NCBI GenBank assembly: GCA_965219685.1
Contig: CBDCOH010000002.1
Location: 2,720,001-2,784,000 of the forward strand
Source of the DNA: Candidatus Spongiisociaceae bacterium
GTDB lineage: Bacteria > Actinomycetota > Acidimicrobiia > Spongiisociales > Spongiisociaceae
DNA: 64,000 nucleotides
Reading direction: 5' to 3'
Shown: one piece after another, positions 55,716 to 62,545 of the stretch
Position numbering within the stretch: the stretch's first letter is position 1
Layout: each line of letters starts with the position of its first letter
Position numbers and translations under genes: made by a program
The notes under the pieces: model-generated
The model's input: the letters and a program-made list of their open reading frames with translations, nothing else
Databases searched by the model: none
What the model was told of the DNA's origin: nothing

Positions 55716-55796
55716 TCGCCTTGACATAACCTACGAGCGCTCGAAAAACCTTGGCCCTCCCGCTATATGTCTGCGCGCCGGGCAGGAAGGACGGGA

Positions 55797-58106
55797 ATGG
55801 AAGGAACCGACCTCCTTCGGCTGATCGAACGCTGGCAGGACAGCACCACCTTCGGAGGCGACGTGGTCTACACGCGCCTCCTCCCCGCTCGAGAGGCCCG
55901 GTTCGAGGATCTCGTGCCGCCACCCACCGGCGCACTCGCCGACAGATTGGCCGCGAGAGGCATCAACCGTTTGTACCGGCACCAAGCAAGGGCAGTCCGC
56001 AACATCAGGGCGGGCAACCATGTGGTCCTGGTCTCCGGCACGGCCTCCGGGAAGACTTTGTGCTACCAGATCCCAATCCTCGAGCAGGTTCTACATGACC
56101 CGACCAGGACCGCCCTGCTCATGTACCCCACCAAGGCCCTGGCACAAGACCAGTTGGGCTCTCTCGACCGGTTCGCTATCCCGGGATTGGCGGCGTCCAC
56201 GTACGATGGTGACCTGCCGCCGCACCAGCGGAACCGGGTGAGAAAAACCGCCAACGTCGTCCTCACCAATCCCGACATGCTCCATTACGGGATCCTGCCG
56301 AATCACAGGTTGTGGGAATCGTTCCTCTCCCGGCTGGATCACGTCGTGATCGACGAGATGCACTACCTGCGGGGGGTGTTCGGAAGCCACAGCGCCCGGA
56401 TAGTCCACCGGCTCCGGCGCTTGGCGGCCCACTACGGATCGAGTCCGACGTTCGTCCTGACATCAGCCACTATCAGGAACCCCACCGAGTTAGCGTCACA
56501 CCTCACAGGGCTGGATGTGACGCTGTTGGAAGGAGACACTTCTCCGGCCGGGGAGAGGATGGTGGTCCTGTGGAACCCCCCTTTGGAGGATCCCGAGTCA
56601 GGTGTCCGGCGCTCCCCGATCTACGAAGCGTCACACCTTTACGTGGACCTGGTGCGCCGGGGGATCCGCACCATCGTGTTCGGGCGGAGCCGCAAGACGA
56701 CCGAGTTGATCCACATCGAATCCGCTCGGCGCCTCGGCAAGCTGGCGGATCGCGTCGCTCCCTATAGGGCCGGATACACGGCGGAGGATCGACGGGAGAT
56801 CGAGCGGCGGTTCTTCTCGGGCGAGTTGCTGGGCGTCACGGCCACTAACGCCCTCGAACTGGGGATAGATGTCGGAGGCCTGGACGCCGCTTTGCTCTGC
56901 ACCTTTCCCGGGACCATCTCCTCCTACCGCCAGCAATCCGGTCGCGCCGGAAGATCCCGCGAAACCTCCATGGTCGTGTTGATCGCAGGAGAGGACGCCC
57001 TGGATCAGTACTTCATGCGTCACCCCGATGAACTGCTGGCACGCCCGCCCGAGCCGGCGGTCATCAACCCCGACAACCCACGGATCCTCGATGTGCACGT
57101 GTCCTGCGCCGCCCACGAACTGCCCCTCGCCCTCTCCGACCGCCGGTACTTCGGTGAGGAGTTGGAGGAGGCCGCCCGCAGGCTGGTCCTCACGGGAAGC
57201 CTCCGGCATCGGCACGGGAGGCTCCACTGGACGGGCCGGCGATCACCGGCGCACCAGACGAGCCTCAGGTCCTCGGACAGACGCTCCTTCACGCTGTACG
57301 ACGTGCTGGCGAAGAAGGTCATCGGTGTGTTGGAGTGGGAAAGGGCCTTCTCCGACGCGCACGAGGGCGCCGTGTACCTACACCGGGGCGCCACCTACCT
57401 GATCGAACGCATGGACCTGCACCGCCGGGAGATACTCGCCCGGCCCGGTCCGGTGGGCTACTACACAGAGCCCTACATCGAGAAGGACCTGAGCGTGGTC
57501 GACACCGAGCGGTCCTCGGAGATCGGCCGGACGGCATGCCACCTAGGTCGGGTGAGGGTGGCGTCGCACGTGGTCGGGTTCCGGAACCGCTTCGAAAGGG
57601 GGACAGGCGGACACCGCGAGATCAACAGACTCGACCTACCCCCGGTGGAGATGGAGACCCAGGCGTTCTGGTTCGCACTTACCGACTCTCTCCTGGAAGG
57701 AGCCGGCCTCGAGAGCCGACAAGCCCCCGGAGCCCTGCACGCCGCCGAGCACACCATGATCGGCATGATGCCGCTGTTCGCGATCTGTGACCGCAGCGAC
57801 ATCGGTGGTCTCTCCACCGCATACCATCCCGATACCCGGGGCCCGGCCATTTTCATCCACGACGGGTACGACGGGGGAGCGGGTATCGCTCCCACCGCCT
57901 ACGAAACCGCTGGAGAACTGGTCGCCGCCACCCTGGAGACACTGCTGCAGTGCCCCTGCTCGACCGGGTGCCCTTCGTGTGTCCAGTCGCCCAAGTGCGG
58001 CAATTTCAACGAGCCTCTCTCCAAGATCGGAGCCATCCGGCTTCTCAACGCCTCGCTGGACGAGCCCGCTAATCCAGTCAATCGGTTGGGTGGATCGAAG
58101 CCCTAG
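55797..58106 (+). CDS. DEAH-box helicase with DUF1998 (MrfA/SftH/Hrq1 family)
   Basis: TASGKT, DEMH, SAT, TNALELGID.G, GRAGR, C-terminal CPC..GCPSCVQSPKC. Confidence 0.93.
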   Translation: MEGTDLLRLIERWQDSTTFGGDVVYTRLLPAREARFEDLVPPPTGALADRLAARGINRLYRHQARAVRNIRAGNHVVLVSGTASGKTLCYQIPILEQVLHDPTRTALLMYPTKALAQDQLGSLDRFAIPGLAASTYDGDLPPHQRNRVRKTANVVLTNPDMLHYGILPNHRLWESFLSRLDHVVIDEMHYLRGVFGSHSARIVHRLRRLAAHYGSSPTFVLTSATIRNPTELASHLTGLDVTLLEGDTSPAGERMVVLWNPPLEDPESGVRRSPIYEASHLYVDLVRRGIRTIVFGRSRKTTELIHIESARRLGKLADRVAPYRAGYTAEDRREIERRFFSGELLGVTATNALELGIDVGGLDAALLCTFPGTISSYRQQSGRAGRSRETSMVVLIAGEDALDQYFMRHPDELLARPPEPAVINPDNPRILDVHVSCAAHELPLALSDRRYFGEELEEAARRLVLTGSLRHRHGRLHWTGRRSPAHQTSLRSSDRRSFTLYDVLAKKVIGVLEWERAFSDAHEGAVYLHRGATYLIERMDLHRREILARPGPVGYYTEPYIEKDLSVVDTERSSEIGRTACHLGRVRVASHVVGFRNRFERGTGGHREINRLDLPPVEMETQAFWFALTDSLLEGAGLESRQAPGALHAAEHTMIGMMPLFAICDRSDIGGLSTAYHPDTRGPAIFIHDGYDGGAGIAPTAYETAGELVAATLETLLQCPCSTGCPSCVQSPKCGNFNEPLSKIGAIRLLNASLDEPANPVNRLGGSKP

Positions 58107-58527: not shown

Positions 58528-59754
58528 ATGGGAAGCAAGACCTCACATCAGCACGAGGCCGGGGATCACGAGCATCATCATGCCGATCACGGGCATTTGC
58601 ACGACCCCCACGAGTGCGACACCCACGAACACCACGGCGATGATCCAAAGCATGTACACGACCCGCACGAGTGCGACACCCACGAACACCACGGGCACGA
58701 CCACTCGGGACACGACGACCACGACCACGACCACCACGGGCATGACCACCCGGGACACGACGACCACGACCACGACGACCACTCAGGGCATGACCACGAT
58801 GACCACGACCACTCGCACGACTACACGGATGTCAACCGGCGCAGCCTCGTCATAGCCCTCACCCTGATCGCGGGCTTCATGGTCGCCGAAGTAGTCGGCG
58901 GCATCTTGTCCGGGAGCCTGGCCTTGCTGTCCGATGCTGGGCACATGATCACCGATGCGGCGGCGATCGCCTTGGCGCTGGTTGCACAGCGGATGGCTCA
59001 GCGCGACGCGTCGGCCGAGCGCACCTTCGGATACCGCCGGGCGGAAGTACTGGCGGCGATGCTGAACGCCTTGAGCCTATGGTTGATCGCTGCCTGGGTG
59101 TTCTTCGAGGCCTACCACCGCCTCAGGGACGTGCCGGAGGTCGAGGGTGGCCTGTTGCTCATCGTCGGGGTTCTCGGCCTTCTGGTGAACATCGCCGCCG
59201 CCTGGGTCCTCCACCGGTCGGCGGAGCACAGCATGAACGTCGAAGGCGCATTCCGTCATGTGATGGCCGACCTGATGGGTTCGGTCGGCGTCGTCATCTC
59301 CGGAGTCGTCATAATCACGCTCGGTTGGACGATCGTCGATCCCATCCTGAGCATTTTGATCGGGCTTCTGATCCTGGCCAGTTCCTGGCGCCTCACCGTC
59401 AAGGTGTTCCACGTGCTGATGGAGGCCGTTCCCGAGAACATCGACGTGTACGCGCTCTGCCACGAACTGGAGGAACAACCGGGTGTCACCCTTGTGCACG
59501 ACGTTCATGTGTGGACCATCTCCTCGGGGCACGAGTCGTTCACCGCTCACGTCCTCATCGATCCCTCCTACCAGGGGGACATGGACGATCTCATACACCG
59601 TATGCAGGCGATCGCCCGCCACAACTTCGGCATCGACCACATCACGATCCAAGCCGAGAAGTCGCTGGCGGGTTGTACCGAAAAACACCATGTCGGCCAC
59701 CTGATGGCAAGGAAGCGGGCCGGAAGGAAGAAGAAGAGGTTCGCCCTCGCCTGA
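58528..59754 (+). CDS. cation diffusion facilitator exporter (CzcD/ZitB-like) with a ~100-aa His-rich N-terminus
   Basis: SGSLALLSDAGHM.TD, TFGYRRAE, HVMAD, HDVHVW, HITIQ. Confidence 0.93.
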   Translation: MGSKTSHQHEAGDHEHHHADHGHLHDPHECDTHEHHGDDPKHVHDPHECDTHEHHGHDHSGHDDHDHDHHGHDHPGHDDHDHDDHSGHDHDDHDHSHDYTDVNRRSLVIALTLIAGFMVAEVVGGILSGSLALLSDAGHMITDAAAIALALVAQRMAQRDASAERTFGYRRAEVLAAMLNALSLWLIAAWVFFEAYHRLRDVPEVEGGLLLIVGVLGLLVNIAAAWVLHRSAEHSMNVEGAFRHVMADLMGSVGVVISGVVIITLGWTIVDPILSILIGLLILASSWRLTVKVFHVLMEAVPENIDVYALCHELEEQPGVTLVHDVHVWTISSGHESFTAHVLIDPSYQGDMDDLIHRMQAIARHNFGIDHITIQAEKSLAGCTEKHHVGHLMARKRAGRKKKRFALA

Positions 59755-59791
59755 CAGATGTATCACGAACCACAACGAAAGGAGCAACTAG

Positions 59792-60019
59792 ATGGGCGGA
59801 CATAACCCGCACGAGTGCGACACCCACGAACACCACGGCGACGAGCCGGGGCACGTGCACGACGACCACGAGTGCGACACCCACGAACACCACGCAGACG
59901 AACACGAGCATGACGAGCACGAGTGCGACACCCACGAACACCACGGCGACGAGCCGGGGCACGTGCACGACGACCACGAGTGCGACACCCACGAACACCA
60001 CGAGCACCAAGCAGCCTGA
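59792..60019 (+). CDS. 75-aa His/Cys/acidic repeat peptide (4x HECDTHEHH), putative metal-binding or storage peptide
   Basis: Strong RBS AAAGGAG upstream of the ATG; 24 His and 4 Cys; same repeat as the CDF N-terminus. Confidence 0.75.
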
Positions 60020-60191
60020 ACCTCATTACCAACCGGATCCTGCTGTGCCCTCACGGGGGTACAGCAGGTCGGTCGGCTGAATTCGGCTCCATGCTCCGAG
60101 GTCAACAAACGGCTCTCCCCCACCCACCGCCTGTTCGGGAGTCCCGGCCAGGTAGGCGAGACGCCAGACGCTCTATCGGTTAAACCCTTAG

Positions 60192-60228: not shown

Positions 60229-61053
60229 CTACTTCGCCATACTCGAGCGTAGGCTCGAGATAGCAAGCACGACGAAGAAGAGAATCACGGGCAGCACCGC
60301 CATGGTCGCGGAGCCCGACGTATTGGCGTGGAAACTGATCACCAGCCCGGCCAGCACGCTGAAAACGCCGATGCCGGCACTGGTAAGGATCATCGTCGGC
60401 ACTCTCCGAACGAGCAACGCGGCGGTTGCCGGCGGCCCGACGAGCAAGCCCAGTGCGAGAAGGGTACCCACGGTGCGGAAGGATCCAATTATCGCCAGGG
60501 TTATCAGCGCCAGAAGCACTCCGTTCGTCAGTCCGGGATGCATCCCCAGCAAGCGGGCTTTCTGCTCGTTGAAGGAAAGGGTGAGAAAGCCCCGGTACAT
60601 CAGAACGGTGGTCAGTATCACGATGACCGCCACCGCCACCAGCAGGAGTATATCCCCGGATGTCACACCCAGGGTGTCTCCGAACAGGATGGCCGCGAGG
60701 CTCCCGCTGTAGGATGGGGTTCGGGAGATGAATATCACCCCCAGCCCCAACATTCCCACGAACAGGAGGCCGATGCCCGTGTCCTCGGCGAAGACCGTCT
60801 GGCGATGCACGAGGTTGATACCACCGATCATGACCAGAGCGGCCAGCGCCGCGCCGATGAAGATGTTGAAGTCAAGAAGGATAGCGAGGGCTATGCCTGG
60901 AATCACGCCGTGAATCAAGGCATCCCCCAGGAAGCTCATCCCCCTGATCACCACCCACGTCCCTACCATCGAACCGGAAACGGCGGCAAGCGTGCCTCCG
61001 ATCGCTGCCCTCTGCTGAAAAGCCAACTCGAACGGTTCGGTAAACCACTCCAC
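60229..61053 (-). CDS. Zn/Mn ABC transporter permease (AztB/ZnuB family)
   Basis: GTWVVIRGMSFLGDALIHG, EDTGIG, ILFGD, FRTVGTLL. Confidence 0.92.
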   Translation of the reverse strand: MEWFTEPFELAFQQRAAIGGTLAAVSGSMVGTWVVIRGMSFLGDALIHGVIPGIALAILLDFNIFIGAALAALVMIGGINLVHRQTVFAEDTGIGLLFVGMLGLGVIFISRTPSYSGSLAAILFGDTLGVTSGDILLLVAVAVIVILTTVLMYRGFLTLSFNEQKARLLGMHPGLTNGVLLALITLAIIGSFRTVGTLLALGLLVGPPATAALLVRRVPTMILTSAGIGVFSVLAGLVISFHANTSGSATMAVLPVILFFVVLAISSLRSSMAK

Positions 61054-61098
61054 AGAGTCCCATCGTAGTGGGGCTAGGACCGGCTCAGTTCCCTGGAG

Positions 61099-61192
61099 TG
61101 GTGAGTGGTGAGTGGTGAATGGTGAGTGGTGAGTGGTGAGTGGTGGAGCCTTAACACACCACGATTCACCAATCACCAGCCACCGATCACCA
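61099..61192 (+). repeat. paired inverted heptamer arrays: (TGGTGAG)x6-7 at 61099-61147 and (ATCACCA)x4 at 61165-61192
   Basis: Complementary arrays separated by 17 nt, between the SBP stop and the permease start. Confidence 0.9.
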
Positions 61193-62545
61193 TCAGCCAA
61201 GTATCTCGGCGATCCTCTCAGCGTTAACTCGGAGCATCCCGATGAGGCTGTCTGCGCCCGAACCGGGTTCGCCGAGCGATCCGGTATAGAGTTCCACCAC
61301 CGCCACGTCGGAACCGGCCTCAGCCGCGAGTGCCTCTGCCAGCGCGGTGGACTCGATCGTCTCGGCGAAGATCGCCCGAACCCCTTCCTCCTGGATCCGC
61401 TCCACCAGGGCAGCAAGTTCTGCGGAACTGGGATCCGCCAGCGTCGCCCCGCCCGGAATAACCGTATCGACGATCTCGAAGCCGTACCTTGCCGCGAAGT
61501 AGCCGAGAGCATCATGGTTGGTGATCAGCTTGCGGTCCTCGGCGTGAACCGGAGCGAGGATTGACCTGATCTCCTCGTCAAGCGCCTCGAGTTCTGAAGC
61601 GTAGGACTCGGCCCGGCCTTCCCAATCGATCGACGGATCGAGCGCTGTCAACTGCTCGGCGATCAGGTGAGCGGCCTTGGCGACGCGCAGCGGATCCAAC
61701 CAGAAGTGGGGATCCCCACCAGTGTGGGCGTGCCCCTCATCCTCGTCATGGCCCTCATCCTCATCATGCTCATGACCCTCATCCTCATCATGGCCCTCAT
61801 CCTCATCATGCTCATGACCCTCATCCTCATCATGGCCCTCATCCTCATCATGGCCCTCATCCTCATCATGCTCATGACCCTCATCCTCATCATGGCCCTC
61901 ATCCTCATCATGCTCATGACCCTCATCCTCATCATGACCCTCATCCTCATCATGGCCCTCATCCTCATCGTGCTCATGACCCTCATCCTCGTCATGACCC
62001 TCATCTTCGTCATGACCCTCGTCCTCATGCTCATGACCCTCATCCTCGTCATGCTCCCCCATATGCTCGTCATGCTCACCCTCGTCCTCATGGGCATGGG
62101 CGCCTCCGGCGAACGGCAAGGGATCGAGCAGGTCGCCGACCTCCAGCAGGTTCACGCCGTCTGCTTCGGCTGCTTCCAGCACGTCGATGAGCCCCTCCTC
62201 CAACTGGATCCCGTTGGACACCACGAGGTCCGCGTCGTGCAGTAGGGCCACCTGGGCGGCCGAAGCCCGGTAGTCGTGCGGATCGGCGCCCACGGGGAGC
62301 AGCACGACCAGGTCAGCGTCGGTGCCCACTATGTTCGACACGATGTCACCCAGGATCGTGGTGGTCACCACGACCATGAGGCGTGACGACTCCGCGGCCG
62401 CGCCGGATTCACTCTCGCTTGCAGATGCTGCATCCGAGGTCGCCTCGGCGGTCGTTGCCACTTCTTCTCCGTCCGAACCGCAGGCCGCAAAGAGCAGCAG
62501 GCAAGCGAACATCCAAGACAGGCTACGGTTCCGGAGGGTGGTCAC
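61193..62545 (-). CDS. cluster A-I metal ABC substrate-binding lipoprotein (ZnuA/AztC family) with a ~125-aa His/Glu/Asp repeat loop
   Basis: Lipobox FAAC; GADPHDY, DPHFWLDP, NHDALGYFA; (HDEDEG/HEHDEDEG)n at about 61730-62100. Confidence 0.93.
   Translation of the reverse strand: MTTLRNRSLSWMFACLLLFAACGSDGEEVATTAEATSDAASASESESGAAAESSRLMVVVTTTILGDIVSNIVGTDADLVVLLPVGADPHDYRASAAQVALLHDADLVVSNGIQLEEGLIDVLEAAEADGVNLLEVGDLLDPLPFAGGAHAHEDEGEHDEHMGEHDEDEGHEHEDEGHDEDEGHDEDEGHEHDEDEGHDEDEGHDEDEGHEHDEDEGHDEDEGHEHDEDEGHDEDEGHDEDEGHEHDEDEGHDEDEGHEHDEDEGHDEDEGHAHTGGDPHFWLDPLRVAKAAHLIAEQLTALDPSIDWEGRAESYASELEALDEEIRSILAPVHAEDRKLITNHDALGYFAARYGFEIVDTVIPGGATLADPSSAELAALVERIQEEGVRAIFAETIESTALAEALAAEAGSDVAVVELYTGSLGEPGSGADSLIGMLRVNAERIAEILG

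Follow-up and report, generated by a model that had tools for sequence, protein, structure and literature searches.

A family of small His/Cys repeat proteins linked to a CDF exporter subtype in marine Chloroflexota and one family of Acidimicrobiia

A family of small His/Cys repeat proteins, found in uncultured marine Chloroflexota and in one family of the Acidimicrobiia, is linked across the two phyla to one subtype of CDF exporter. The member described here lies in the window, the 64,000-nt stretch of DNA from a Candidatus Spongiisociaceae bacterium that was analysed. Its gene reads as a genuine conserved gene under purifying selection, and the features of the locus are collected in Table 1. 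We incline to the view, with somewhat better than even confidence, that the peptide is a disordered cytosolic zinc buffer whose metal would be exchangeable with the neighbouring ZitB-like CDF.

The peptide gene and its family

The initial annotation had described a 75-aa ORF with an AAAGGAG ribosome-binding site, 37 nt after a CDF gene and built from four HECDTHEHH units. All of these elements were re-derived from the sequence, with the 37-nt gap running from the CDF stop codon (59752-59754) to the peptide ATG. The peptide contains 24 His (32%), 14 Glu, 12 Asp, 6 Gly and 4 Cys residues. There are 26 acidic residues and no basic or aromatic ones. The units are joined by a 10-residue linker, used twice, and by ADEHEHDE. 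Hydrophobic residues are limited to 2 Val, 3 Ala and 1 Met and form no stretch, and neither a signal peptide nor a membrane segment is present in the 75 residues. Judged by its composition, the peptide is predicted to be cytosolic. An AF2 model made with a 59-sequence alignment has a mean pLDDT of 44.9 and a pTM of 0.13, low values that match the expectation for a protein that folds on metal only.

Table 1. Features of the peptide locus (window coordinates).
Feature	Position	Strand	Remarks
ZitB/CzcD-like CDF with His-rich N-tail	58528..59754	+	Pfam Cation_efflux 3e-44, ZT_dimer 5e-09
Two HECDTHEHH units with GDDPKHVHD linker in the CDF N-tail	58609..58692	+	Share the 27-nt unit of the peptide gene
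CDF C-terminal Cys/His motif C-T-E-K-H-H-V-G-H	59674..59700	+	Pattern match; conserved in peptide-linked CDFs
Shine-Dalgarno AAAGGAG	59778..59784	+	7 nt 5' of the peptide ATG
His/Cys repeat protein gene	59792..60019	+	ATG ORF, 75 aa; codon-position tests and relatives back coding
Four HECDTHEHH units in the peptide ORF	59810, 59867, 59918, 59975	+	Exact 27-nt DNA repeats
Antisense ORFs overlapping the peptide gene	59642-60010 and 59788-60123	-	122 and 111 aa; Val- or Ser/Cys-rich
Strong stem-loop, candidate transcript end	60039..60068	+	Inverted repeat 20 nt after the peptide stop, between convergent genes
AztB/ZnuB-like ABC-3 permease	60229..61125	-	Pfam ABC-3 5.9e-54; convergent with the peptide gene
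AztC/ZnuA-like substrate-binding protein (SBP)	61193..62545	-	Pfam ZnuA 4.4e-59

The DNA encoding the nonapeptide had been noted to recur in the N-terminus of the adjacent CDF, and this is borne out: the 27-nt unit occurs exactly six times in the window, four times in the peptide ORF and twice in the CDF N-tail, where the copies start at 58609 and 58666. The unit found no match in 100 shuffles, and no copy beyond these six is present in the 4.42-Mb genome. The two 84-nt halves of the peptide ORF are 100% identical. Contigs of X5, a run from a separate study, are 95-99% alike to the window, and one of them covers 58792-59834, joining the end of the CDF gene to the start of the peptide gene; these short-read contigs stop at the repeats, so that none covers the entire peptide ORF.

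The evidence for coding is as follows. A search of 40 other related genomes found full-length relatives of the peptide (80-89% identity) in 10. Among 56 distinct four-unit genes, the three codon positions differ by 5.1, 5.6 and 25.6 per pair, and 70% of the differing codons are synonymous. Since these 56 genes were picked by a regular expression for the unit, the test was redone without that expression on 64 ORFs selected by length and Cys register only; positions 1, 2 and 3 of these relatives differ by 5.25, 5.88 and 25.72 per pair. The values for the 32 codons that lie outside the motif and had no role in selection are 5.04, 5.73 and 16.71 per pair, and 56% of the differing codons are synonymous. 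The codon-aligned antisense frame fails the same test, with 3.8% synonymous. Conservation of the open frame in relatives had been set beforehand as a test that could refute the gene, and the frame is kept, with a third-position bias that the antisense frame does not have. The length, start and Shine-Dalgarno site of the gene are also conserved among relatives, and sites resembling GGAGG or AAGGAG lie 5' of the chosen start in nearly all of 81 loci. All six frames at the peptide gene are largely open, and a composition-based (GC3) filter chose the antisense ORF at the loci of several relatives. With the antisense frame just as open, automated annotation may place the gene on the wrong strand.

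The core of the family, taken from an alignment of 20 sequences (A1), is a pair of units: H-x-H-D-x-H-E-C-D-x-H-E-H-H, then GDEPG, then H-V-H-D-x-H-E-C-D-x-H-E-H-H. The window peptide has the H-E-C-D-x-H-E-H-H pairs with the 13-residue linker that characterize this alignment and a second one of 59 sequences (A2), in which the unit columns are invariant partly by construction because its rows were chosen by the unit expression. Among the 64 ORFs chosen without that expression, eight deviate by one or two residues in one unit. Unit number is 3, 4, 6, 7, 8 or 10 in 78 distinct sequences and 2 in many further genes, for an overall range of 1-10.

The initial annotation did not recognise a family for the peptide, and our searches agree: there is no Pfam-A match at E up to 0.1, no NCBIfam match at E up to 1 and no hit in a PDB sequence search at E up to 1, and the best ESM Atlas score, 0.77, is to an unnamed cluster. 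A word-indexed search of 5.8 billion clusters returned 35 small proteins of 43-103 aa. None of the 35 has a name or a Pfam domain, the source label, where given, being "hypothetical protein", and the exact sequence of the window peptide is absent from that collection. When 1.84 billion representatives were searched with a profile, 29 hits were obtained, all of 34-133 aa, with no long fused forms among them. Two long members of the peptide clusters, P0037 and P0053 (peptidase M20), are unrelated to the family and were set aside as cluster artefacts. A literature search with motif strings and keywords found no report of such a protein in the papers covered. The family gives a name-worthy identity to dozens of short ORFs that are now unnamed or labelled "hypothetical".

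The repeats are subject to turnover. The halves of four-unit genes have a median DNA identity of 90.5% within a gene, compared with 83.3% for the same half between genes, and the within-gene value is the higher one in 51 of 56 genes. This greater likeness within genes indicates that the halves evolve in concert. In five Chloroflexota relatives (L084, L087, L095, L102 and L103), the third unit is H-E-C-D-T-H-C-H-H, and the second Cys, which replaces a Glu, always precedes an ADEPG linker. Two congeners of the window genome have short forms: in G002 (L121), the CDF-then-peptide order is present and the peptide is contracted to a single-unit ORF of 17 residues, and in G006 (L025), there is a one-unit remnant only.

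The linked exporter, its neighbours and their distribution

The window CDF matches the CDF superfamily model TIGR01297 with 280 bits. Among equivalog models, ZitB scores highest, though with 274 bits it stays below its cut-off of 408; the protein is therefore ZitB-like rather than a certified ZitB. It has the features of a zinc-type CDF, with Cation_efflux and ZT_dimer domains and a His-Asp/His-Asp transport site whose four residues (H139, D143, H244, D248) show no variation across the 62 aligned CDFs. Directly after the cytoplasmic domain comes a motif, G-C-x-E-x-H-H-V-x-H-L, that is found in all 63 CDFs of this kind neighbouring the peptide gene at the best 80 of 251 loci (see below). Within it, C383 and H391 are invariant (62/62), and E385, H387 and H388 are at least 90% conserved. 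In a second sample, a pattern caught the motif in 14 of 25 CDFs, an undercount due to a narrow expression, and the remainder were seen by eye.

Long His/Asp-rich N-tails are also present in all 63 neighbouring CDFs of the best 80 of 251 loci. The proposal that the peptide mirrors the N-tail of its exporter holds for the window CDF (two Cys-containing units) and for those of a congener, L100 (three units), and of L081 (two units), but not as a general rule: HEC units are found in the N-tails of 2 of the 63 neighbouring CDFs and in none of the 25 of the second sample, leaving 61 of 63 and 25 of 25 without them. Sharing of the module is thus a rare, lineage-specific fusion. In the window, the six 27-nt units are identical and the linkers of the CDF tail and the peptide gene differ. 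This arrangement points to a recent exchange of units between the two genes, which lie 1.2 kb apart.

To describe the neighbourhood of the family, one genome per species was scanned, giving 392 pattern matches, of which 251 were confirmed; the locus analyses use the best 80 of these 251. A CDF is present at 64 of the best 80 of 251 loci, 63 of these being relatives of the core of the window CDF and the other (L066) a more distant CDF directly 5' of the peptide gene. The 63 CDFs at these best 80 of 251 loci are arranged tail-to-tail with the peptide gene in 54 cases, downstream on the same strand in eight and upstream on the same strand in one; the last is the arrangement of the window itself, in which 37 nt separate the CDF from the peptide gene downstream and the permease gene converges on the latter. 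In convergent pairs, the median stop-to-stop gap is 104 nt (n = 52). In an even sample of Dehalococcoidia, which shares eight genomes with the best-80 set, a CDF lies within 5 kb of the peptide gene in 25 of 32 genomes; one genome, G926 (L155), was not placed in this neighbour tally. Of these 25 genomes, 16 have the peptide gene immediately before the CDF in the same direction, eight have the two genes tail-to-tail, and in one the CDF is 3.8 kb off. The peptide-CDF gap in tandem pairs is 145-210 nt at the seven loci measured. These counts overstate the number of independent events, since related genomes are not independent. Still, the co-occurrence with CDF genes that had been put forward as a check is found in both samples, and the CDF stays, in three orientations, as the rest of the neighbourhood changes between lineages. 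The tail-to-tail loci also show that the peptide gene is free-standing, as first described, and not the broken 5' end of a CDF gene.

The linkage has exceptions. Only one of the five CDF genes of the window's genome is linked to the peptide. Genomes of genus g7, a genus of the window's family, keep the peptide gene and have no CDF of this subtype anywhere in the genome. Conversely, G301, from another family, carries the CDF subtype together with zinc importer genes but lacks the peptide; of the pattern matches fetched from genomes of the class without the peptide, only that of G301 is a true CDF of the subtype. The C-terminal motif and the peptide can thus occur apart. At eight of the best 80 of 251 loci, neither a CDF nor an importer gene is a neighbour. 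The forms with seven or eight units (129-147 aa; L027, L029, L035 and L048) are without adjoining zinc transport genes. In L027 and L035, a gene for an MMPL-family transporter lies upstream and one for a 570-650-aa protein downstream; the latter protein matches DUF2207_C in L035 only, and a tRNA gene comes next in L027.

The second recurrent neighbour is a zinc importer. In the window, the best NCBIfam model of the permease is AztB (266.7 bits, cut-off 280) and that of the SBP is AztC (279.5 bits, cut-off 350). A permease gene lies upstream of the peptide gene on the same strand at 13 of the best 80 of 251 loci and is the sole zinc neighbour at seven of them; at L099, there are importer genes only, more than 3 kb away and on the other strand. 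In genus g7, the order is helicase, then, on the opposite strand, SBP, permease and peptide, with no CDF. Compared with g7, the window's genus has the CDF and peptide genes inserted at the same place in the opposite orientation. The helicase, encoded at 55767-58106 (+) directly upstream of the CDF gene, is MrfA-like, with a DEAD-box and an MZB zinc-binding domain, and is the syntenic anchor common to the window and g7. The window SBP has a His/Asp/Glu-rich insert that is far longer than the usual ZnuA loop. It is encoded by repeat arrays at 61731-62092, in which tandem repeats with units of 18, 42, 60 and 102 nt are nested (up to 92% matches). At the junction of the SBP and permease genes (61096-61145), the heptamer GAGTGGT is repeated 7.1 times (95% matches); since seven is not divisible by three, slippage would change every reading frame that crosses it.

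The genomes of the best 80 of 251 loci are all MAGs, titled Dehalococcoidia, Chloroflexota, SAR202, Acidimicrobiia, Candidatus Spongiisociaceae or "bacterium". The family is present in 32 of 301 genomes in the even sample of the class around a Dehalococcoidia-titled genome; the corresponding count for the class of the window is 2 of 301, and both genomes belong to the window's own family. The peptide family is found in none of 400 other genomes of the window's phylum, so that within the Actinomycetota samples, it is restricted to that family. Among viral contigs, there were 25 pattern hits, none confirmed as a peptide gene. In a quick, unrooted tree of 62 CDF rows, 12 Actinomycetota-type rows cluster with support of 80 beside 11 Chloroflexota rows, and a fully supported split separates these 23 from the remaining 39 Chloroflexota rows. 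The patchy distribution suggests transfer of the peptide-CDF pair between the phyla.

Zinc and the proposed role of the peptide

The His-Asp/His-Asp site, the ZitB-like scores of the CDF and the AztC/AztB-like importer make zinc the probable metal, as far as protein families allow, and the evidence points to zinc over Ni or Co as the metal bound. We suggest the following mechanism. The apo peptide, being very acidic, would be disordered and would fold on metal binding. Its H-E-C-D-x-H-E-H-H units, paired through 13-residue linkers, would bind a divalent metal, most likely Zn(II). Each pair of units may form one Cys2His2-type site from two C-x-x-H half-sites joined by the GDEPG turn and, in addition, several weaker His/carboxylate sites. 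The peptide would thereby buffer zinc with high capacity on the cytoplasmic side of its transport, the capacity scaling with unit number. Captured zinc would stay exchangeable for the CDF, whose His-rich N-tail and C-terminal Cys/His motif offer matching ligands. A complex prediction with two copies of CDF residues 95-408, the peptide and four Zn gave a score of 0.00 and a pLDDT of the partner below 50, and counts as evidence neither way. Counting against a buffer that works with this exporter are the g7 peptides, which lack the CDF subtype, the eight of the best 80 of 251 loci without either neighbour, and G301, which carries the CDF subtype without the peptide.

It is tempting to propose a closer partnership, in which the peptide, as an exporter tail that stands free, docks on the cytoplasmic domain of the CDF through zinc bridging to the C-terminal Cys/His motif and serves either as a dedicated chaperone that delivers zinc or as a regulatory subunit that sets the activity of the pump. 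The presence of the Cys...HHVxH motif in 63 of 63 neighbouring CDFs, and by eye likewise in the second sample, speaks for it, as do the scarcity of the CDF subtype elsewhere in the class (only G301 among fetched matches), the fusion of the module into the CDF N-tail in three lineages, and a precedent in the N-terminal HCH motif of ZnT8 as described in the accessible portion of PMC7428307. Nevertheless, we regard this partnership as unlikely: the peptide gene is intact and conserved in g7, where this CDF subtype does not occur, and a unit number anywhere between 1 and 10 is more in keeping with a capacity device than with a fixed surface for docking. In its boldest form, the idea would make the peptide the first cytosolic zinc metallochaperone, or trans-acting regulatory tail, for a CDF exporter, detachable and tunable in copy number and docking on the C-terminal motif, and the pair would have moved between Chloroflexota and one family of Acidimicrobiia in the same marine hosts. 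This bold form, too, seems to us improbable, at perhaps one chance among several.

A role on the import side is doubtful. Here, the peptide would be a zinc reserve or escort made together with an AztABC/ZnuABC-type importer when zinc is low, and it would keep the zinc taken up ready for distribution. The gene is indeed downstream of and co-directional with the permease gene at 13 of the best 80 of 251 loci; all of the g7 loci examined have the permease-peptide order and a conserved leader of about 100 nt, and in Dehalococcoidia, znuA-znuB-peptide with a convergent CDF behind it is a recurrent gene order. However, permease-peptide gaps of 150-700 nt make a separate promoter for the peptide gene probable, no Zur-type site was found, and the CDF is by far the commoner neighbour, standing in tandem with the peptide in the window and in 16 of 32 sampled genomes.

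We attach a similarly small likelihood to the peptide binding Ni, Co, Cd or Cu in the manner of Hpn, in which case its link to zinc genes would stem from a pump of broad specificity. Co and Cd are further substrates of HD-HD CDFs such as CzcD and ZitB, and a composition of 32% His with four Cys resembles that of Hpn. Against this, the constant neighbours are of zinc type, no nickel/cobalt riboswitch is found in 26 loci or in the window region, and urease, hydrogenase and Ni/Co transporter genes are not among the recurrent neighbours.

It is very improbable that the ORF is non-functional, whether generated by the repeats, left over from a CDF 5' end or an antisense shadow, since the recent tandem repeat with its identical copies, the open frames with the filter's choice of the antisense ORF in several loci, and the decayed copies in G006 and G002 are outweighed by the third-position bias that persists in codons outside the selection and already contradicts this explanation, by the conserved length, start and Shine-Dalgarno site, and by the mostly convergent position relative to CDFs that own complete N-tails.

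Returning to the zinc buffer, we note that the peptide by its putative role resembles small cytosolic metal-binding proteins, yet it matches no family model. Hpn and the Hpn-like protein of Helicobacter pylori are small and cytosolic, a third to a half His with few Cys, and are thought to store or buffer nickel. The peptide is like them in being a small, presumably cytosolic, His-rich protein with few Cys, a likeness of composition. It differs in that Hpn is a nickel protein of another phylum with no known exporter neighbour and is not known to contain an H-E-C-D-x-H-E-H-H unit. SmtA and BmtA are Cys-rich cytosolic proteins with a Zn4Cys9His2 cluster in a zinc-finger-like fold, encoded beside metal-homeostasis genes. 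The peptide shares with them this type of gene neighbourhood, small size and, putatively, the sequestering of zinc, but it has one Cys per nine-residue unit and is rich in His, Asp and Glu. Assignment of the peptide as a prokaryotic metallothionein of the SmtA/BmtA type was rejected because there is no Pfam or NCBIfam match and only four Cys occur in 75 residues.

Copper pumps have dedicated chaperones; CopZ is a soluble copper chaperone, and CopA is its P1B-ATPase. As with this pair, a soluble protein shares a module with the N-tail of an exporter, in the window, L100 and L081 only. The fold, metal and transporter family are different, and the module is shared in 2 of 63 neighbouring CDFs and 0 of 25 in the second sample. 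For zinc delivery to CDF exporters in the cytoplasm, the peptide is a concrete, clonable candidate buffer or chaperone. If the chaperone or regulatory-tail idea were true, the peptide would be to zinc and the CDFs as CopZ is to copper and the P-type ATPases.

Structurally, the HCH motif of human ZnT8 is the closest precedent for a Cys/His element in front of TM1. In the available part of the ZnT8 study, this N-terminal motif completes two zinc sites on the C-terminal domain of the neighbouring subunit, and transport needs it (PMC7428307). ZnT8 is likewise described there with the element ahead of TM1 in an HD-HD CDF, and the window CDF has both N-tail units and a C-terminal Cys/His motif. The HCH of that account is, however, a tripeptide within the transporter, whereas the peptide is a multi-unit repeat and mostly a separate protein. 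A 2023 review, in the portion available to us, describes the small protein MntS as modulating the exporter MntP, and its table gives CDFs as regulated by zinc at their own C-terminal domain only, with no small-protein partner (PMC10710835). The peptide, as proposed here, would resemble MntS as so described in being a small protein that acts on a metal exporter, with the difference that MntP belongs to its own family and not to the CDFs. The accessible part of another source gives the expanded loop of RcnA as an example of a His-rich, low-complexity stretch in a transporter (PMC11247825). Loops and tails of the CDF, RcnA and ZnuA type are like the peptide in being low-complexity His/Asp stretches on a metal pathway, but they are Cys-free and part of the transporter, whereas the peptide family stands alone with an invariant Cys per unit.

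Transcription and upstream leaders

The 37-nt gap, together with a hairpin that is found only after the peptide gene, argues for one transcript with the CDF, so that the window peptide gene is probably co-transcribed with it. The segment 60020-60095 folds with -36 kcal/mol (z = -4.03); because the stem-loop is without a T tract, its function as a terminator is putative. Co-transcription is not the rule for the family, since the genes are convergent at 54 of the best 80 of 251 loci. A promoter scan returned no sites, and its one terminator-like site lies elsewhere. No gene for a metal-sensing regulator recurs near the peptide gene, and a Zur-box-like consensus has no matches. Rfam models detect only tRNA and SRP RNA in 26 loci, with no nickel/cobalt riboswitch, and only sub-threshold chance hits in the window region.

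Two conserved non-coding stretches were noted. At seven loci (L056, L073, L077, L083, L085, L092 and L097), about 100 nt upstream of the peptide start, there is a conserved leader containing TGCTA(T/G)CCT. Covariation gives no support for a structure of the g7 leader (term +0.25); base pairing is conceivable between a CCTT stretch in the leader and the Shine-Dalgarno AAGG. At the tandem loci with two units, L125-L133, the 145-210-nt spacer, which has no Rfam match, ends in a conserved stretch with a short GGAC...GTCC hairpin before the CDF start.
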